From the IMG/VR virus record IMGVR_UViG_3300045988_022552, positions 1 through 5,039 of that record: a stretch of DNA of 5,039 nt; one strand, 5' to 3'. Under the pieces are notes generated by a model that saw only the letters and a list, made by a program, of their open reading frames with translations, did no database searches and had not been told where the DNA came from. A program made the position numbers and the translations under genes. Source of the DNA: a virus. Below, piece by piece: positions 1-5,039 of the stretch; the first letter of the stretch is position 1; the number at the start of each line of letters is the position of its first letter.

Positions 1-99
1 CCTTTTTTCCTTGACGAAGTATTACCGGGTGATACGTTCAACGTGGACACATCCAAGGTTGTGCGCCTGCAGACGTTGCTTACTCCGGTTATGGATAAC
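1..99. repeat. Terminal redundancy copy A (identical to 4941..5039). This is a circular-genome assembly overlap.
   Basis: 99/99 nt identity to the window end, read directly from the sequence. Confidence 0.95.
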
Positions 100-1578
100 A
101 TTTATCTCGATACGTATTTCTTCTTCGTACCGAACCGGCTTACTTGGTCTCATTGGAAGCAGTTCAACGGCGAGAATACGGAATCTGCGTGGATTCCTCA
201 GACAGAGTATGAAATTCCTCAGATTACTGCTCCTGCTGATAGCGGGTGGTCTGTTGGAACTATTGCCGATTATCTCGGTGTGCCTACTGGCATTCCTAAT
301 CTTTCCGTTAGTGCTCTTCCCTTCCGAGCTTATGCCTTGGTGATGAATGAGTGGTTTCGTGATGAAAACTTATCTGACCCGCTCGTTGTTCCCGTCGATG
401 ATGCTACTGTAGCCGGCGTTAATACCGGCACGTTTGTGATCGATGTTGCGAAAGGTGGTCTTCCCTATAAGGCCGCAAAGTATCACGACTATTTCACAAG
501 CTGTCTTCCTTCTCCGCAGAAAGGCCCGGATGTTTTGATTCCTTCGGCCACGTCTGGCGAATATCCTGTTGTTACTCGTGCTACTCGTATTGACCCTGAT
601 GTATTAGGTAGCGTTCCATACTCTGCTTATTCTTCTTCGACTTCCAATACATTAAAAACCGGTTCTATATTATTTGAGTTTCCTTCTGGCTCAAATTTGG
701 GTGTTCAATCTCGAGATGGTTCGCAATATGCGTCCAATGGTTTTCTGCCTTTGATCGATAATATGTATGCGGTTTCTTCCGGCGGTCTCGGTGCTTCGAT
801 CAATCAGCTGCGCATGGCGTTCCAGATTCAGAAACTCTATGAGAAAGACGCCCGCGGTGGTTCTCGTTATATTGAGATTCTCAAGTCTCATTTCGGTGTG
901 ACTTCTCCTGATGCCCGTCTTCAGCGTCCCGAGTATCTCGGTGGTAACCGTGTCCCCATTAATATTAATCAGGTTGTCCAGCAGTCGGCCACGGCTTCCG
1001 GCGAGACTGCACAGGGTACTGTTACTGGTATGTCTGTTACTACTGATTCCCATTCTGATTTCACGAAGTCTTTCACGGAGCATGGTTTTGTCATCGGCGT
1101 TATGGTTGCTCGTTATGATCATACTTATCAGCAAGGTCTTGAACGTTTTTGGTCTCGTAAGGATCGCTTTGATTACTATTGGCCTGTTTTTGCGAACATC
1201 GGTGAGCAGGCCGTGAAGAACAAGGAGATTTTTGCACAAGGTCCGGCGAAGGTCGATTCTGCTGGTGCTGTTATCGATGATCAGGTCTTTGGTTATCAAG
1301 AAGCGTGGGCTGATTATCGTTATAAGCCGTCTCGTGTTACCGGTGAGATGCGTTCCCAGTATGCGCAGTCTCTTGACGTTTGGCATCTTGCTGATGATTA
1401 TTCCGCTCTGCCTATGCTTTCGGATTCGTGGATTCGTGAGGATAAGACAAATGTGGATCGTGTGCTTGCTGTTACTTCCAGCGTTAGCAATCAGTTGTTT
1501 GCCGATATTTACATCAAGAACCGGACTACACGTCCAATGCCTATGTACTCTATTCCCGGTCTGATTGACCATCATTGA
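1..1578 (+). CDS. VP1: Major capsid protein VP1 (F-like). This is the body and C-terminus; it is 5'-truncated only by the linear representation. The same reading frame continues from 4824..4940 across the circular junction.
   Basis: Frame 1 is open from nt 1 (PFFLDEVLPGDTFNVDTSKVVRLQTLLTPVMDNIYLDTYFFFVPNRL...). It carries the conserved Microviridae F-protein block INQLRMAFQIQKLYEKDARGGSRYIEILKSHFGV. The stop is TGA at 1576-1578. The full gene on the circular map is 117+1578 nt = 564 aa, typical of gokushovirus VP1. Confidence 0.95.
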   Translation, partial: PFFLDEVLPGDTFNVDTSKVVRLQTLLTPVMDNIYLDTYFFFVPNRLTWSHWKQFNGENTESAWIPQTEYEIPQITAPADSGWSVGTIADYLGVPTGIPNLSVSALPFRAYALVMNEWFRDENLSDPLVVPVDDATVAGVNTGTFVIDVAKGGLPYKAAKYHDYFTSCLPSPQKGPDVLIPSATSGEYPVVTRATRIDPDVLGSVPYSAYSSSTSNTLKTGSILFEFPSGSNLGVQSRDGSQYASNGFLPLIDNMYAVSSGGLGASINQLRMAFQIQKLYEKDARGGSRYIEILKSHFGVTSPDARLQRPEYLGGNRVPININQVVQQSATASGETAQGTVTGMSVTTDSHSDFTKSFTEHGFVIGVMVARYDHTYQQGLERFWSRKDRFDYYWPVFANIGEQAVKNKEIFAQGPAKVDSAGAVIDDQVFGYQEAWADYRYKPSRVTGEMRSQYAQSLDVWHLADDYSALPMLSDSWIREDKTNVDRVLAVTSSVSNQLFADIYIKNRTTRPMPMYSIPGLIDHH

Positions 1579-1589
1579 GAGGTGATTTA

Positions 1590-2414
1590 ATGACTACTGG
1601 TAAGGATGCTGCTCTGGTTCAGAGTGTGCCGGCTGTCGGAAACTTAGATTCTGCTCTTTCTCGTATTACCAGGACTGCATCAGAAAACACCGCTAAAAGC
1701 GCTCAGATGGCTTCTGACCAACGCGATTGGCAGGAGAGGCAAAATGCCCTTGCTATGCAGTTCAACGCTCAGGAGGCCGCTAAAAGCCGTTCTTGGCAGG
1801 AATACATGAGCAATACTGCGCATCAGCGTGAGATTCGCGATCTTAAAGCGGCCGGTTTGAATCCGGTTCTAAGTGCTATGGGAGGTAACGGCGCTGCCGT
1901 TACCTCCGGCGCTACTGCTTCTGGCGTTACTTCTGCTGGTGCTAAAGGCGAGGTTGATACTTCTGCTAATGCCGCTTTGGTTCAGATTCTTGGTTCTGTT
2001 CTTTCGGCGCAGACACAGCTTCAGACCGCTAATGTTAATGCTCGTACTCAAGAGGCCGTAGCCGACAAGTATACCGCTATGGAGAAGCTCGTCGCCCAGA
2101 TCGGCGCTGATGCTTCCAAATATAGTGCTCAGCTTGGTTATGCTGGCTCTAAGTATAATGCTAATATGCATTATTCTCTTGGTAAGTATCAGACTGATAA
2201 AGGATTTGAGAATCAGGTTTTTCTTGAGCAGAATTATCCTTCAAACTATGTTCAAGCTGTTAATTCTATTCTAAAGTCTCTTGGTTTTGATGTTACTGGT
2301 GGTTCTACTTCCGGTGAAGGTTCTGTTTCTGCTGAACAGTATGCTAAGCTCTTGGAAAAGTATAATGCTGCTCTTCTTGGTTCAGGTCCAAAACGTTCTA
2401 GGCATCAGAGATAA
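1590..2414 (+). CDS. VP2: VP2 minor capsid / DNA pilot protein (274 aa).
   Basis: The ATG at 1590 is preceded by GAGAGGTGA (SD) with a 4-nt spacer (GGTGATTTAATG). The protein is Ala/Ser/Gly/Gln-rich and carries the gokushovirus VP2 signature SWQEYMSNTAHQREIRDLKAAGLNPVLS (the 'MSNTA...AGLNP' block). It sits immediately after the VP1 stop, as in gokushovirus gene order. The ORF track starts it at TTG 1575, but the ATG at 1590 has the SD. Confidence 0.85.
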   Translation: MTTGKDAALVQSVPAVGNLDSALSRITRTASENTAKSAQMASDQRDWQERQNALAMQFNAQEAAKSRSWQEYMSNTAHQREIRDLKAAGLNPVLSAMGGNGAAVTSGATASGVTSAGAKGEVDTSANAALVQILGSVLSAQTQLQTANVNARTQEAVADKYTAMEKLVAQIGADASKYSAQLGYAGSKYNANMHYSLGKYQTDKGFENQVFLEQNYPSNYVQAVNSILKSLGFDVTGGSTSGEGSVSAEQYAKLLEKYNAALLGSGPKRSRHQR

Positions 2415-2416
2415 AG

Positions 2417-2458
2417 AAAACAGAAAGCTCCGGAGCTCTGCTTCGGAGTTTCTGTTTT
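2417..2458 (+). terminator. Rho-independent-type hairpin immediately after the VP2 stop: AAAACAGAAAGCTCCG / loop / CGGAG-TTTCTGTTTT, ending in a T-run.
   Basis: A 10-bp perfect outer stem (AAAACAGAAA/TTTCTGTTTT) plus a 5-bp inner stem (CTCCG/CGGAG) with a 1-nt bulge. The loop contains the palindromic GAGCTC. The 3' side ends in TTTT followed by GCC. Confidence 0.55.
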
Positions 2459-2496
2459 GCCTGCAAGCGTTAGCGCGCACAGCGAATAGATATGCA

Positions 2497-2516
2497 CCAG
2501 CGAGCGCCAGCGAGCG
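2497..2516. repeat. Direct tandem 10-bp iteron-like repeat CCAGCGAGCG x2, with a degenerate third copy (ACAGCGAAT) about 10 nt upstream. It lies inside a GC-rich island in an otherwise AT-rich intergenic region.
   Basis: Read directly: ccagcgagcg ccagcgagcg at 2497-2506 and 2507-2516. The flanking sequence gcgttagcgcgcacagcg is AGCG-rich. Confidence 0.5.
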
Positions 2517-2520
2517 GACA

Positions 2521-2553
2521 CAGCCCCATTACTCTCTTGATGTAATGGGGCTG
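2521..2553 (+). promoter_or_regulatory. Perfect 12-bp stem / 9-nt loop hairpin (CAGCCCCATTAC tctcttgat GTAATGGGGCTG). It is a candidate viral-strand replication origin or packaging stem-loop.
   Basis: The inverted repeat is perfect, with no downstream T-run, so it is unlikely to be a terminator. The loop TCTCTTGAT contains CTTGAT, the same core as the phiX174 gpA nick site (ACTTG^ATATTAAT). Iterons sit immediately upstream. Confidence 0.4.
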
Positions 2554-2589
2554 AGTGACACCACGATAAGCAAAATGCTCTCTTTAGGT

Positions 2590-2640
2590 TATTGACAAGC
2601 TATGAATATATGATAAAGTAATGAATATAATAAACTGTAA
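2590..2640 (+). promoter_or_regulatory. AT-rich putative promoter region upstream of the micro-ORF and VP4.
   Basis: TTGACA at 2593-2598 and TATAAT at 2626-2631. These two hexamers are 27 nt apart, so they are not one canonical promoter; each would need a weaker partner hexamer. Composition is strongly AT-rich. Confidence 0.3.
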
Positions 2641-2649
2641 GGTGATTAA

Positions 2650-2757
2650 ATGAAAAATGATGATAAAGATAAAATGCTTGATGATTTTTGCCTACAGATG
2701 CTTTTGCTTGTAGGAGCTGGTGTTGCTCTACTTGTTATTGTTTCTTATTTCTTATGA
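2650..2757 (+). CDS. 35-aa micro-ORF encoding MKNDDKDKMLDDFCLQMLLLVGAGVALLVIVSYFL. It has a charged N-terminus followed by a single predicted transmembrane helix. It is a candidate small membrane or lysis-associated peptide.
   Basis: The ATG at 2650 is preceded by AAGGTGA with a 4-nt spacer (GGTGATTAAATG), nearly identical to the VP2 initiation context (GGTGATTTAATG). It lies in intergenic space between VP2 and VP4. It is not in the ORF track because it is shorter than 60 aa. Its 3' end overlaps only the weakly supported GTG-2720 extension of VP4. Confidence 0.4.
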   Translation: MKNDDKDKMLDDFCLQMLLLVGAGVALLVIVSYFL

Positions 2758-2794
2758 TGGGGATACGATATCCCCATACAAAGAAGGTGATTTC

Positions 2795-3808
2795 TTGCCA
2801 TGCTATCATCCGCTTAAAGCCTTTGTCTTAGGCGAAAAAGACGGTAAACGGTTGCTTAAGGTGACGTGCTATGAGATAGACCATCTTGAACGTTCTGGTG
2901 ATGGTTTTGCGTGTTGCACACATCCCGCTTATGGCCGTCCCGGTGATGTTACGGAGTTCATCGAAATTCCCTGTGGAAAGTGTTCCGGCTGTCGGCTTCA
3001 GAGATCGCGTGAATGGGCTAACCGATGTATGCTGGAGCTTGAATATCATAAGTCTAGTTACTTCGTAACGCTTACTTATGATGATGCTCACGTTCCGATT
3101 CATTACTATTCCGATCCTGTGACCGGTGAGGCTTTGCCGAGTATGTCTCTTGTGAAGCGTGATTTTCAGCTTTTTATGAAGCGTCTCCGAAAGAAATTTG
3201 GTGAAGGTATTCGTTTCTTTGCTTCCGGTGAGTATGGTTCAGAGACGTTTCGACCTCATTATCACGCTATTATTTTTGGTTTGGAGCTTAATGATCTTGT
3301 TCCTTATAAGCGTTCTGCTCAAGGTTTTCAGTATTTTAATTCCGCTTCTCTTCAGGATGTCTGGCCGTATGGCTATGCTGTTGTAGCTCCGGTGACTTGG
3401 GAGACCTGCGCTTATACTGCTCGGTATGTGATGAAGAAGCTTACTGGCCCTGAAGCTGAGTTTTACGAGAATTTTAATATTGTTCCTGAGTTTTCGCTTA
3501 TGTCTCGCAAGCCTGGCATTGCCCGGCAGTATTATGAGGATCATCCCGACCTATATGAACATGAGTTCATCAATATTTCGACGGAGAAAGGAGGAAGGAA
3601 GTTTCGTCCTCCGAAGTATTATGACAAATTGTTTGATCTCGATTGTCCGGAAGAATCTGCCAAGCTTAAGGCTGTTCGTCAGAAGATGGCAATTGAAGCG
3701 CAGAAAGCAAAACTACAGAAGACCACACTTAGTTATTTAGATCAGCTGGCCGTTGAAGAACGGAACCAGCTGGCCCGAATAAAATCATTAAAAAGGAGTA
3801 GTATCTAA
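2795..3808 (+). CDS. VP4: VP4 replication initiation protein (rolling-circle Rep of the HUH superfamily), about 337 aa. The start is probably a non-AUG TTG.
   Basis: Motif 1 FVTLTYDD (nt ~3062-3085). Motif 2 HUH as RPHYHAIIFG (nt ~3257-3277). Motif 3 catalytic di-tyrosine AYTARYVMKK (nt ~3413-3439), comparable to phiX gpA YVAKYVNKK. N-terminal Cys cluster: CYHP...CCTHP...PCGKCSGC (Zn-finger-like, nt ~2798-2996). The TTG at 2795 has AAGAAGGTGA with a 4-nt spacer, the same GGTGATTT context as VP2. There is no in-frame ATG before residue ~77. The ORF track begins at GTG 2720, where the SD spacing is only 3 nt and the extra N-terminus is low-complexity. Confidence 0.9.
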   Translation: MPCYHPLKAFVLGEKDGKRLLKVTCYEIDHLERSGDGFACCTHPAYGRPGDVTEFIEIPCGKCSGCRLQRSREWANRCMLELEYHKSSYFVTLTYDDAHVPIHYYSDPVTGEALPSMSLVKRDFQLFMKRLRKKFGEGIRFFASGEYGSETFRPHYHAIIFGLELNDLVPYKRSAQGFQYFNSASLQDVWPYGYAVVAPVTWETCAYTARYVMKKLTGPEAEFYENFNIVPEFSLMSRKPGIARQYYEDHPDLYEHEFINISTEKGGRKFRPPKYYDKLFDLDCPEESAKLKAVRQKMAIEAQKAKLQKTTLSYLDQLAVEERNQLARIKSLKRSSI

Positions 3809-3921
3809 TGCGTAAGAAAATGCGTCCCAAGAAAGATAAAAAGGTCTTTCGTCGTACTGCCGCTAAGTCCAAGAAGATCAACATTAACCCGACTGTTTTC
3901 CGAGGAGGTATTCGGTTGTGA
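3808..3921 (+). CDS. ORF8-like small highly basic DNA-binding protein (phiX J analogue), 37 aa: MRKKMRPKKDKKVFRRTAAKSKKININPTVFRGGIRL.
   Basis: The ATG at 3808 overlaps the VP4 stop (TAATG). AAGGAG (3793-3798) lies 9 nt upstream. Of 37 residues, 15 are K/R and only 1 is acidic (D). Its size and charge match gokushovirus ORF8 / microvirus J-type DNA-condensing proteins. Confidence 0.6.
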   Translation: MRKKMRPKKDKKVFRRTAAKSKKININPTVFRGGIRL

Positions 3922-4067
3922 ACTGTGAGTTTGCAGACGTTTGTGATCCAGTTTGTGAGGATTTTCCTGAATCTTGTCCGTTCTATTGTGAGTTTGCAGA
4001 CGTTTGCGATCAAGATTGTGAGGATTTTCCTGAATTTTGTCCGTTCTATAAGGAGTTGAAAGTATGA
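3918..4067 (+). CDS. Hypothetical 49-aa acidic, cysteine-rich tandem-repeat peptide: (M)NCEFADVCDPVCEDFPESCPFY CEFADVCDQDCEDFPEFCPFY KELKV. This is a speculative coding interpretation of the 63-bp repeat.
   Basis: The frame is open from 3888 to TGA 4065-4067. A GTG at 3918 is preceded by GAGGAGG (3902-3908) with a 9-nt spacer. The repeat unit is exactly 21 codons. The stop overlaps the VP5 ATG as ATGA, the same coupling architecture as VP3/VP1. One of the 4 inter-unit substitutions is a synonymous Cys change (TGT>TGC). Caveat: two other frames (one + frame and one - frame) are also open across the repeat, so openness alone is weak evidence. Confidence 0.25.
   Translation: MNCEFADVCDPVCEDFPESCPFYCEFADVCDQDCEDFPEFCPFYKELKV
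3924..4049. repeat. Direct tandem repeat of 2 x 63 bp (units 3924..3986 and 3987..4049), with 59/63 identity. Each unit contains internal GTTTGTGA sub-repeats and 3 TGTGA motifs.
   Basis: Read directly. Unit 1 is tgtgagtttgcagacgtttgtgatccagtttgtgaggattttcctgaatcttgtccgttctat. Unit 2 differs at 4 positions (tgt>tgc, cca>caa, gtt>gat, tct>ttt). Confidence 0.95.
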
Positions 4068-4315
4068 AATACGGTGTTTATTCTATCCGCGATGCCCGCA
4101 CGGGCTTTCTCCCGCCTACGGTAGACCAGAATGATTCTTCTGCTATGCGTAACTTCGCTCATGCCTGTATGCAGAAGGAAAGTCTTTTGTTCTCCCATAT
4201 TGAAGATTATTCCCTTTGTAAGATCGGTGAGTTTGACAACGAGACTGGTACGATCTTGACGCAGCTCCCTGAGGTTATTTTGGATGGTACTTCCATTCAG
4301 AGAAAGGATGTGTGA
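4064..4315 (+). CDS. VP5: VP5 (gokushovirus non-structural protein implicated in ssDNA synthesis/packaging), 83 aa.
   Basis: The ATG at 4064 has AAGGAG (4050-4055) and an 8-nt spacer. The sequence MKYGVYSIRDARTGFLPPTVDQNDSSAMRNFAHACMQKESLLFSHIEDYSLCKIGEFDNETGTI fits the VP5 family pattern (Y.I.D.K.g.F..P....ND..A.R.F............PEDY.L..IG.FD..TG). Its position between VP4/ORF8 and VP3 is typical. Confidence 0.8.
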   Translation: MKYGVYSIRDARTGFLPPTVDQNDSSAMRNFAHACMQKESLLFSHIEDYSLCKIGEFDNETGTILTQLPEVILDGTSIQRKDV

Positions 4316-4317
4316 TT

Positions 4318-4827
4318 ATGTATGATGAAAAGCTTGGATTCGTTACTCAGTATCGTCCGCGAACTCGCTTCATTTCAAATGGAGGTCAGCGCGAATGGAT
4401 TCTCTATCAGCCTAAATTTGATGAAAATGGAGTTATGGATCTCGTTGAATCTGGTAAAGAAGACCTTTACGATTTCATTCAATCCCACGCCGAATCTGTC
4501 GATATCCATGTGATTCTTGCTCGATTTCAGAATGGCGACATTGACGCGCTTTCGCGTGTCCAAGGCGCTTATGGTGATTTCACCAATATGCCTACGTCCT
4601 ACGCTGAGCTTCTGAACAGGGTTAATGAAGGTCAGAGCTTTTTCAATTCTCTTCCGGTTGATATTCGTGCAAAGTTTAATCATAACTTTGCGGAGTTTAT
4701 GGCTGCTATGGATAAGCCTGATTTCCTTGAAAAGCTTGGAATCAAGCCCGAGCCAGAGCCAGAGCCTGTTCCGCCCGTTCAGGAGGGAAAACCGGCTGTT
4801 GAGCCGAAAAAGGAGGTTATCGAATGA
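4318..4827 (+). CDS. VP3: VP3 internal scaffolding protein, 169 aa, with an acidic Pro/Glu-rich C-terminal tail.
   Basis: The ATG at 4318 has AAAGGA 9 nt upstream. The ORF-track GTG at 4312 has an SD spacing that is too short. The block DIHVILARFQNGDIDALSRVQGAYGDFTNMPTSYAELLNRVNEGQSFFNSLPVDIRAKFNHNFAEF matches gokushovirus VP3 scaffold conservation (YGDFT...LP..R..F). The stop TGA at 4825-4827 overlaps the VP1 ATG (ATGA). Confidence 0.85.
   Translation: MYDEKLGFVTQYRPRTRFISNGGQREWILYQPKFDENGVMDLVESGKEDLYDFIQSHAESVDIHVILARFQNGDIDALSRVQGAYGDFTNMPTSYAELLNRVNEGQSFFNSLPVDIRAKFNHNFAEFMAAMDKPDFLEKLGIKPEPEPEPVPPVQEGKPAVEPKKEVIE
4750..4767 (+). repeat. Hexanucleotide microsatellite GAGCCA GAGCCA GAGCCT. 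It encodes the PEPEPEP low-complexity segment in the VP3 C-terminal tail.
   Basis: Read directly. It is in frame with VP3 (E-P-E-P-E-P). Confidence 0.8.
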
Positions 4828-5039
4828 ACCGTAATGTTGAATCTCATTTCGCACTTAATCCCACGAACATTGATATCCGGCGCTCGACGTTTGACCGGTC
4901 GCATTCTCTTAAGACTTCGTTTAACGTTGGTGATATTGTGCCTTTTTTCCTTGACGAAGTATTACCGGGTGATACGTTCAACGTGGACACATCCAAGGTT
5001 GTGCGCCTGCAGACGTTGCTTACTCCGGTTATGGATAAC
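4824..5039 (+). CDS. VP1: Major capsid protein VP1, N-terminal part (MNRNVESHFALNPTNIDIRRSTFDRSHSLKTSFNVGDIVPFFLDEVLPGDTF...). It runs into the terminal redundancy and is in frame with feature 1..1578.
   Basis: The ATG at 4824 is preceded by AGGAGG (4811-4816) with a 7-nt spacer. The N-terminus matches the canonical gokushovirus VP1 start (SxFDxS...VLPGDTF). Positions 4941..5039 duplicate 1..99, so the frame is continuous with 1..1578. The ATG overlaps the VP3 stop (ATGA). Confidence 0.95.
   Translation, partial: MNRNVESHFALNPTNIDIRRSTFDRSHSLKTSFNVGDIVPFFLDEVLPGDTFNVDTSKVVRLQTLLTPVMDN
4941..5039. repeat. Terminal redundancy copy B (identical to 1..99). The implied unit genome length is 4940 nt.
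   Basis: The exact 99-nt duplicate of the window start begins at 4941 (ccttttttccttgacgaagtattaccggg...). Confidence 0.95.

Follow-up and report, generated by a model that had tools for sequence, protein, structure and literature searches.

The window analysed here, the whole stretch of 5,039 nucleotides taken from IMG/VR record IMGVR_UViG_3300045988_022552, holds the complete genome of a gut gokushovirus, circular and 4,940 nt long. The region of interest lies between VP2 and VP4, and its features are collected in Table 1. On the VP2 side there is a terminator-like hairpin (-15.7 kcal/mol, z = -5.5 for the single-stranded DNA fold against shuffles), which is kept in close relatives only and marks the upstream boundary of an untranscribed gap containing the origin candidate. 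On the other side, the best promoter-like site of the window is followed by AAGGTG and a small ORF (2650-2757) ahead of VP4. The preliminary description of this locus, made from the sequence alone, placed the candidate in a GC-rich island. The GC content over 2400-2600 (0.49-0.55) is higher than in the promoter region immediately 3' (0.23-0.32) and in the 3' end of VP2 upstream (0.33-0.44), but at these values the island is GC-rich only in relative terms.

Table 1. Features identified around the VP2-VP4 intergenic region of the window.
Feature	Position	Strand	Characteristics
Terminator-like hairpin	2417..2458	+	~19 bp, 3' arm TTTCTGTTTT, T-run; immediately 3' of the VP2 stop codon
AGCG-repeat module CAAGCGTTAGCGCGCACAGCG	2464..2484	+	Variant of CCAAGCGTGAGCGCGGnnAGCG; second conserved non-coding module
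Tandem 10-mers CCAGCGAGCG x2	2497..2516	+	Clade-specific extension of the AGCG module
Origin hairpin (candidate)	2518..2556	+	2518-2532 pairs with 2542-2556; 15 bp, one A/A mismatch
Loop motif CTTGAT	2536..2541	+	VP4 cut predicted at G2539/A2540 from the phiX174 site CTTG^AT
3' flank AGTGACACC	2554..2562	+	TGACA invariant; GAC at 2557-2559, 16 nt 3' of CTTGAT
Promoter-like site	2592..2619	+	TTGACA, 16 nt, TG-extended TAAAGT (TGnTAAAGT); 10/12 matches
VP4, rolling-circle replication initiator	2720..3808 (start codon provisional)	+	HUH motif PHYHAIIF; Y232/Y236 in YTARYVMKK

The core of the hairpin is a perfect 12-bp inverted repeat, 2521-2532 (CAGCCCCATTAC) with 2542-2553 (GTAATGGGGCTG), closing a 9-nt loop at 2533-2541 (TCTCTTGAT), and both are present where they had been reported. 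When the genome was shuffled 300 times with its dinucleotides preserved, perfect inverted repeats never exceeded 10 bp, so none reached 12 bp, and segment 2512-2565 folds as single-stranded DNA at -15.2 kcal/mol (z = -6.3 against shuffles). A period-10 run as long as the tandem CCAGCGAGCG was obtained in 3 of 300 shuffles. Chance does not explain the hairpin, the loop and the tandem repeat. The covariance model scored 71.4 bits at 2512-2565, the sole strong match in the window, and the element is single-copy. The stem is followed by AGTGACACCACGATAAGC, which contains no T-tract, and a search of the whole window against Rfam (both strands, E <= 1) gave no match.

The only mapped microvirus origin is that of phiX174, and the initiator of this phage is related to VP4. 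VP4 was assigned to phrog_942, 'replication initiation protein' (E = 9e-131), and to Pfam PF23343 (E = 1.4e-17), a nuclease-type family that was its sole match, no helicase family being identified in the protein. Comparison with phiX174 protein A by BLASTP (E = 1e-7) aligned the HUH motifs, LHFHAVHF in protein A, and matched the YxxxY motifs, where protein A carries its two tyrosines in YVAKYVNKK. The Reps of the two subfamilies have been reported as monophyletic (PMC6668415). In phiX174 (NC_001422) the origin reads CAACTTG^ATATTAATAACACTATAGACCAC, with the rep_origin annotated at 4306 and the nick located between G4305 and A4306. Synonymous changes across this origin, from CAA through the GAC codon (D115), are detrimental, and the sequence is near-invariant across phiX-, G4- and alpha3-like phages. 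Its GAC lies 16 nt 3' of CTTGAT, at the same offset as in the window, a coincidence with a chance probability of roughly 2-5%; beyond CTTGAT and the GAC at +16 the resemblance is weak, with 8 of 21 spacer and flank positions matching phiX. The similarity of the loop to the phiX174 origin core, which had been noted before, is thus borne out, and it is made stronger by the GAC at +16 and by VP4 being a homologue of gene A. The enzyme presumed to act on the element is VP4.

Nearly all gokushoviruses share an element of about 45 nt, of which the hairpin is a copy. The genomes compared were gathered by VP4 or VP1 similarity and never by the motif. Of 80 loci selected through VP4, 71 carry the element, as do most of those selected through VP1, all 29 loci with a terminal overlap (complete circles), and 11 of 12 deposited genomes spread evenly over VP1 identities of 50% down to 27%. 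It is also present in Chlamydia phage Chp2, where the CTTGAT-loop hairpin is the longest perfect inverted repeat of the genome, and in Spiroplasma phage SpV4, where it is joint longest; a spacing of 17 nt and the flank GTGATAGC keep the model score of the Chp2 element down to 16.5 bits. In phiMH2K a single weak candidate (13.8 bits) lies on the gene strand, contrary to what the skew rule described below would predict, and a search of its opposite strand gave nothing convincing. The position of the element varies: it abuts the 5' end of VP4 in some relatives, and elsewhere overlaps the VP4 start, follows VP4 or lies between VP1 and VP2. A search of the available literature gave no description of a gokushovirus origin or of this hairpin, the original papers on Chp1, Chp2, SpV4 and phiMH2K being outside its coverage.

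The specificity of the element was examined with an IMG/VR-wide scan for the bare motif pair: a hairpin lay alongside on 28 loci shorter than 8 kb, and loci of at least 8 kb gave 44 matches, none of them with a hairpin. Bacterial genomes scanned for a stem of the window type gave six matches, five of them unrelated hairpins and one a real prophage. The gokushovirus prophage L267, on a 114-kb Eubacteriales contig, carries the element internally, between VP2 and VP4 and away from the junctions. Some contigs end inside the hairpin; these ends were considered as evidence of nicking and discarded, the break points differing between contigs and being probably assembly artefacts.

Covariation was assessed on 55 distinct sequences aligned with the covariance model, since MAFFT mis-registered the 5' arms where loop lengths differed. 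The stem sequence is wholly different between lineages with its pairing kept: 94.5% of cells are paired, against 22-45% with the partners slid, in an alignment that is fitted to the model structure and whose matches were picked by a model already containing the motifs. Both-sided (compensatory) changes were found in 14 of the 15 stem pairs. The covariation score was 0.553, against at most 0.081 for the controls, and was reached by none of 500 shuffles. RNAalifold, run independently, predicted the same helix, with compensatory changes in all 12 predicted pairs. Of the six positions of CTTGAT only the A, present in 53 of the 55 sequences, is not invariant. The motif occupies the 3' end of the loop, the AT being pulled into the stem in some lineages (e.g. 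L056), and the loop residues 5' of it differ in number as well as in sequence. The flanking TGACA is invariant, with an extended form TGACA(C)(C), and GAC follows CTTGAT at a distance of 16 nt in nearly all relatives, a few clades having 17 nt instead. The check proposed in the preliminary description, conservation among related gokushoviruses, therefore gives a hairpin kept through compensatory changes with CTTGAT kept in its loop; neither a general lack of the hairpin in relatives nor a loop free to vary, the outcomes which it had named as contrary to an origin, was found.

In nine genomes, from at least three or four lineages, the element lies on the strand opposite to all the genes. The T/A skew of the gene strand is -0.22 to -0.38 in these nine and -0.21 to +0.25 in the 80 genomes with the usual orientation, with no overlap between the groups; it is +0.15 in the window and +0.13 in the viral strand of phiX174. 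As the genomes with the opposite orientation have the reversed skew, the element acts on DNA and marks the T-rich strand. This strand, the one bearing CTTGAT, is probably the packaged strand. Exceptions to a simple rule are two genomes of usual orientation (L271 and L274) that also have a negative skew, so the skew is not set by the element alone. Orientation and skew together suggest that some microviruses package the non-coding strand. We know of no microvirus described to date as packaging its antisense strand.

The element is structurally constrained, single-copy and subfamily-wide, carries invariant motifs and lies on the T-rich strand independently of gene orientation, and segment 2518-2562 is read here as the viral-strand (rolling-circle) origin of this gokushovirus with VP4 as the acting enzyme, at a probability of about three in four. 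The preliminary description had advanced the hairpin as a candidate rolling-circle origin, a proposal now supported by conservation, covariation, the phiX174 spacing and VP4 homology. From these comparisons we infer hairpin extrusion, flank binding and VP4 cleavage with its exact position, the best reading by analogy with phiX174 being a nick between G2539 and A2540. The inverted repeat would extrude as a hairpin from the replicative form, double-stranded and supercoiled at this stage, and expose CTTGAT as single strand. VP4 would bind there, probably aided by A-N-TGACAC(C), an invariant duplex or flank sequence located 16 nt downstream of CTTGAT, and the 3' flank at 2554-2562 is a candidate Rep-binding ('key') sequence. 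Cleavage between G2539 and A2540 would leave VP4 covalently linked to the 5' A through Y232 or Y236, and the 3'-OH would be extended by the host polymerase with displacement of the CTTGAT-bearing strand. Once the site was regenerated, with the hairpin in the displaced strand, the second tyrosine would cut and the first would ligate, releasing a circular single strand to be packaged.

The same properties were weighed against a complementary-strand (minus) origin, in which the hairpin on the incoming single strand would direct host priming by primase, a PriA-type primosome or RNA polymerase. Such an origin is required by every microvirus and no other candidate was identified here; moreover, the stable hairpin sits on the strand inferred as packaged, and the skew fits both kinds of origin. 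The n' (PriA) site of phiX174 and the complementary-strand hairpins of G4 are likewise intergenic and on the packaged strand of a microvirus; unlike the gokushovirus element, however, they are host-recognised and lack CTTGAT, and host-recognised minus origins differ even between phiX174 and G4. Reekeekee- and roodoodooviruses have conserved intergenic hairpins upstream of Rep, for which a role in minus-strand initiation was tentatively proposed (Olo Ndela et al. 2022, PMC9865509). Their stems show compensatory substitutions, and the loop is identical within one of the clades; that study reported neither a connection with the cleavage motif of protein A nor a survey across the subfamily. In the gokushovirus element the invariant loop hexamer is the exact gene A cleavage motif and the flank spacing is phiX-like. 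The motifs are also unchanged across phages of Chlamydia, Spiroplasma and gut bacteria, which points to recognition by a phage-encoded protein rather than by a host factor. Finally, the length of the element, about 45 nt, is below the 150-300 nt usual for single-strand origins of plasmids. A minus origin in place of the viral-strand origin is therefore unlikely, and the element may serve in both plus and minus synthesis.

Invariant motifs beside a structure would suit any DNA-binding protein, and the element could be an operator, or a site for binding or packaging by a phage protein other than VP4 (the procapsid, for instance, or the small basic DNA-binding protein), with no nicking at the loop. 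Its location between a terminator-like and a promoter-like site fits this proposal, and an orientation that tracks the skew fits a signal read on the packaged strand. Nevertheless, such a site would not explain why the loop coincides with the cleavage motif CTTG^AT, and the placement of the element relative to promoters is not fixed. As for packaging, in phiX174 it is coupled to origin-dependent stage III synthesis, with no separate signal. A site of this kind is accordingly quite improbable.

Lower still stands a transcription terminator or mRNA-stabilising stem-loop for the VP1-VP2 transcript, which has in its favour a GC-rich stem located 3' of VP2 and a covariation that would also suit an RNA hairpin. 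The element was not called by the terminator scan, a better terminator-like hairpin lies 60 nt upstream, neither the loop nor the flank varies in sequence, and Rfam gave no match. The absence of a T-tract, earlier taken to argue against a simple terminator, was confirmed, and the real terminator-like hairpin upstream adds to it, as do the nine genomes where this asymmetric element is on the non-coding strand, which contradict such a function; it is very improbable. A dif-like XerC/XerD integration site, as in enterobacterial gokushovirus prophages, can practically be discarded: dif-like motifs do occur in non-coding regions of some gokushoviruses (PMC7062461), but the element has no 11-6-11 architecture (28-bp site), is present in the lytic Chp2 and SpV4, and is internal in the L267 prophage, which contradicts a role at the junctions.

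With the viral-strand origin as the preferred reading for the window, its extension to the whole subfamily stands at even odds: the CTTGAT hairpin and TGACAC would be the origin of all Gokushovirinae, homologous to that of phiX174, with the orientation giving the packaged strand. About 10-25% of the sampled lineages have the element opposite to all the genes and the skew reversed. If so, the long-unmapped viral-strand origin of the subfamily would be located, and the phages of these lineages would package the antisense strand, as 'negative-sense' microviruses. In both guts and oceans, gokushoviruses count among the commonest phages with single-stranded DNA, and to our knowledge all that is known of microvirus replication comes from phiX174. 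An origin candidate of about 45 nt makes gokushovirus replication testable by nicking and origin-plasmid assays and in a system tractable in E. coli. The annotation of thousands of metagenomic microvirus genomes would gain from it a natural zero point and a way to call the strand, and gokushovirus-based phagemids or vectors for single-stranded DNA production a minimal cis unit.

As an origin, the element would form a bridge between the phiX type and those HUH replicons whose origins are presented on hairpins. With the 30-nt origin of phiX174 and other Bullavirinae, cut by protein A, it shares the CTTGAT hexamer and the GAC 16 nt downstream, an order of cleavage sequence, sequence-tolerant spacer and conserved distal sequence, an extreme conservation, and homologous initiators with HUH and Y-x-x-x-Y motifs. 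The phiX174 origin differs in lying inside gene A, with an AT-rich unstructured spacer (-4.2 kcal/mol, z = -0.9) and no need of a hairpin, whereas the gokushovirus element is intergenic and its spacer is the GC-rich 3' arm of a hairpin of 12-18 bp. The distal motifs, TGACACC here and TAGACCAC in phiX174, are only partially alike. With the hairpin origins of HUH Reps (geminiviruses, circoviruses and other CRESS-DNA viruses, and pT181-type plasmids) it shares a covarying stem and an orientation that sets the displaced or packaged strand and may differ relative to the genes; its invariant loop motif, with the presumed nick, would be a further parallel. The CRESS nonanucleotide NANTATTAC is, however, unrelated to the loop of the window, VP4 differs from CRESS Reps in lacking an SF3 helicase domain and in having two catalytic tyrosines, and the element does not in general have iterons next to its stem. 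A tripartite origin of the phiX type, its spacer turned into a hairpin arm, fits the layout better than a CRESS origin.

The preliminary description had put forward a CRESS-like arrangement of iterons and stem-loop for this locus. The tandem 10-mers are present as described, and the degenerate upstream copy is real and falls within the AGCG module. The 10-mers are kept in close relatives, with changes confined to the first two bases, and are restricted to the window's own clade, being absent from other lineages. The module itself was identified near the hairpin in 48 of 158 loci (about a third), always on the CTTGAT strand, its start lying 57-71 nt 5' of CTTGAT in some loci and 38 nt 3' of it in others. 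Because it may lie 5' or 3' of the hairpin, even among phages with VP4 about 95% identical, and is missing in most lineages, the CRESS-like iteron picture is not established. The AGCG island was also considered as a folded element and rejected, as it folds worse than shuffled sequence (single-stranded DNA, z = +1.86). In three loci (L044, L056 and L132) the module was identified beside unrelated stems as well.

The hairpin of the window is a perfect 12-bp inverted repeat (2521-2532 and 2542-2553) with a 9-nt loop, TCTCTTGAT, and is accompanied by two tandem copies of CCAGCGAGCG at 2497-2516, all as stated in the preliminary description. Perfect inverted repeats longer than 10 bp appeared in 0 of 300 genome shuffles, and the tandem 10-mer repeat was equalled in 3 of 300. 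As single-stranded DNA the hairpin reaches -15.2 kcal/mol (z = -6.3). The gap in which it lies is bounded by a terminator-like hairpin directly 3' of VP2 (2417-2458) and by a promoter-like site (2592-2619).

The hairpin is a subfamily-wide element. Intergenic BLAST showed conservation limited to window positions 2518-2563 (85-97%) in about 100 gokushovirus genomes that have diverged elsewhere. Genomes fetched blind to the motif comprised 80 IMG/VR loci chosen on VP4 similarity (98-50% identity) and a further 62 on VP1. Conservation of the paired stem and of CTTGAT among relatives had been proposed as a check, and it was borne out in the BLAST-negative lineages: their longest perfect inverted repeat was the hairpin, with an entirely different stem (e.g. 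TACGCCCATACAT/ATGTATGGGCGTA, CTGGGGACAGTTAG/CTAACTGTCCCCAG and GTGGGAACCAATA/TATTGGTTCCCAC, among further types) and with the loop end CTTGAT and the 3' flank TGACACC unchanged. The element was identified in 29/29 loci with terminal overlap; the loci lacking it are all without such overlap and therefore possibly truncated. It was also present in 11 of 12 deposited genomes sampled evenly over 50% to 27% VP1 identity, the sole exception being 6.2 kb long and having a capsid protein of 722 aa. Copies were identified in Chlamydia phage Chp2 (CTAGCGTATAACAG-TCTACTTGAT-CTGTTATACGCTAG-GTGATAGC) and Spiroplasma phage SpV4 (TGGGGCATAT-ATTACTTGTTATA-ATATGCCCCA-TTGACGAC); the only candidate in phiMH2K (3290-3344, gene strand, loop CTACTTGTTGTAA, flank CACAG) is weak, at 13.8 bits. 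When IMG/VR was scanned for specificity with the bare motif pair TCTTGAT-N14-15-TGACACC, a hairpin accompanied the pair on 28 loci below 8 kb; on loci of at least 8 kb the pair matched 44 times, never with a hairpin.

Among IMG/VR contigs, one locus (L057) contains an inverted duplicate of the element, 1349-1402 (+) and 4768-4821 (-), and contigs L019, L025 and L090 start or stop within the hairpin. The palindrome seems to have produced these forms as artefacts of assembly or amplification, and they may be the reason that some linear contigs are without the element. Many relatives present a second exact TCTCTTGATGT, without hairpin, within the VP1 coding region (e.g. 842-901 in locus L001; protein SLDVW). 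It is absent from the plus strand of the window, whose sole other CTTGATGT is at 1511-1518 on the minus strand.

A covariance model built from 27 diverse copies retrieved 70 strong matches, 55 of them distinct; these were picked by a model that includes the motifs, a caveat covered by the motif-blind retrieval and the result for loci with terminal overlap. Among the 55, paired cells amounted to 94.5% versus 22-45% in slid controls, and in 14 of 15 stem pairs both partners had changed. The covariation score, from an alignment fitted to the model, was 0.553 versus at most 0.081 in controls and was reached by 0 of 500 shuffles. Independently, RNAalifold returned the same helix with compensatory changes in 12/12 predicted pairs. 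In the loop, CTTG and the last T are invariant and A is found in 53/55; the flank TGACA is invariant, and copies differ in both the length and the sequence of the 5' part of the loop.

The phiX174 origin (NC_001422) has the sequence CAACTTG^ATATTAATAACACTATAGACCAC and is nicked between 4305 and 4306. GAC at positions 16-18 after the end of CTTGAT is common to phiX, the window (2557-2559) and nearly all relatives, the position being 17 in a few clades. In a recent deep mutational scan, synonymous changes were reported as detrimental at protein A codons Q107-D115, and cleavage at G4305/A4306 and what Tyr343 and Tyr347 do were restated (bioRxiv 10.64898/2026.07.25.740675); these codons, CAA to GAC, are exactly the stretch compared here. 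Phages of the phiX- and G4-like groups have a 100% identical phiX origin and alpha3-like phages a 93% identical one, a conservation of the same kind as that of the gokushovirus element. Outside CTTGAT and GAC, DNA similarity between the two is weak, and the phiX origin lacks a hairpin. VP4 aligned to protein A with E = 1e-7 (PHYHAIIF with LHFHAVHF and YTARYVMKK with YVAKYVNKK, VP4 first), and the Reps of both subfamilies are reported as monophyletic (PMC6668415).

The favoured reading, to which we give about three chances in four, is a viral-strand origin, because the cleavage site of protein A recurs here as the invariant motif of the loop, at a phiX-like spacing from a second invariant motif, because the element is short and single-copy, and because phages with very different hosts keep both motifs unchanged, which points to the one conserved phage DNA enzyme, VP4. 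A complementary-strand origin, as which similar hairpins of two other microvirus clades have tentatively been read (PMC9865509), is improbable; a dual role as viral- and complementary-strand origin is possible. As to novelty, the searchable literature, with the oldest Chp2, SpV4 and phiMH2K papers outside its scope, held no account of a subfamily-wide, hairpin-presented, phiX-related gokushovirus origin candidate. The kind of element is not new, since both rolling-circle origins and nick sites presented by hairpins are well known.

The element, asymmetric in loop and flank, lies opposite to every gene, VP1, VP2 and VP4 among them, in nine gokushovirus-like genomes (see table; L-numbers denote genomes or loci fetched for comparison). 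By capsid similarity these form at least 3-4 lineages, each about equally distant from its nearest usual-orientation neighbours. L145 and L146 are complete circles by terminal overlap, and MG945751, MH572481 and PQ006439 are annotated as complete circular genomes. Gene-strand (T-A)/(T+A) skew averaged +0.109 (-0.21 to +0.25) in 80 genomes of usual orientation and -0.317 (-0.376 to -0.224) in the nine, without overlap (Mann-Whitney p = 1e-6, uncorrected for phylogeny); lineage by lineage, the inverted genomes are 0.2-0.35 below their nearest usual-orientation neighbour. The usual sign is also that of the phiX viral strand (+0.132) and of the window (+0.148). The gene strand of phiMH2K (L083) is A-rich (-0.29), resembling the inverted group, and is an exception to the orientation pattern. 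Since cytosine deamination is the usual explanation for T excess of the packaged strand in ssDNA phages, the simplest reading is that the CTTGAT-bearing strand is the one existing as single-stranded DNA; the inverted element and A-rich gene strand together suggest that the phages of the nine inverted genomes package the antisense strand. The element works on DNA and marks one strand. This result, new to our knowledge, is compatible with viral-strand and complementary-strand origin alike, and the inverted orientation with matching skew excludes a role as terminator or RNA.

Nor can the element be a dif-like site, since a gokushovirus prophage on a Eubacteriales contig of 114 kb carries it in its interior. 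This prophage (L267; JAZOAH010000008.1, Eubacteriales MAG; 367-4958) has the order VP3, VP1, VP2, element, VP4, with VP1 41% identical to that of the window, on a large, Clostridia-type contig. Its hairpin matches the perfect 12-bp core of the window exactly, inside a 14-bp perfect stem. The prophage is a host clue for phages of this kind.

The 10-mers described as iterons are present in the window, but they are not a universal part of the proposed origin; most lineages lack the module to which they belong. They form the end of an AGCG-repeat module, CCAAGCGTGAGCGCGGnnAGCG (window 2464-2516; L002 4876, L056 5257, L132 1054), whose core (C)CAAGCGTGAGCGCGGnnAGCG was identified near the hairpin in 48/158 loci, always on the CTTGAT strand. 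The start of the module is 57-71 nt upstream of CTTGAT in some loci and 38 nt downstream in others, both arrangements being found among phages with about 95% identical VP4, and also occurs beside unrelated stems (L044, L056 and L132). It is unstructured in the fold test; it may be bound by VP4 or by some host factor, or it may be the minus-strand priming site.

Coordinates of window genes and of elements in inverted orientation
Sequence	Feature	Position	Strand	Basis
Window	VP1 major capsid	43-1578		Pfam Phage_F
Window	VP2-like pilot protein	1575-2414		PHROG 'pilot protein' families
Window	VP4 replication initiator	2720-3808		PF23343; phrog_942, E = 9e-131
Window	37-aa basic protein	3808-3921		phrog_10695 (function unknown); basic composition from translation
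Window	VP5	4064-4315		Pfam
Window	VP3 scaffold	4312-4827		Pfam
L140, L142, L143, L144, L146	Inverted element			
L145	Inverted element	4649-4702	minus	
L269 (MG945751)	Inverted element	3555-3607	minus	
L273 (MH572481)	Inverted element	2791-2845	minus	
L279 (PQ006439)	Inverted element	2332-2385	minus	

The 99-nt terminal redundancy (window 1-99 = 4941-5039) identifies the window as a circularly permuted genome, circular and complete at 4,940 nt. All genes are carried by a single strand, and the nearest deposited relatives are gut Microviridae/Gokushovirinae genomes of about 88-90% identity. The Pfam match of VP1 begins at profile position 44; the start of this ORF therefore probably lies across the junction, ahead of position 43. 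A 63-nt tandem repeat (3924-4049; two copies, 93% identical) in a 49-aa ORF (3918-4067) encodes two copies of a 21-aa unit rich in Cys and acidic residues (CEFADVCDxxCEDFPExCPFY), and this ORF has no Pfam or PHROG match. A 35-aa ORF (2650-2757), without family match, is directly 5' of VP4 and overlaps its annotated start. Its ribosome-binding site (AAGGTG) is good, the C-terminal half of the product is hydrophobic (LLLVGAGVALLVIVSYFL), and the product could be a small membrane or lysis protein.
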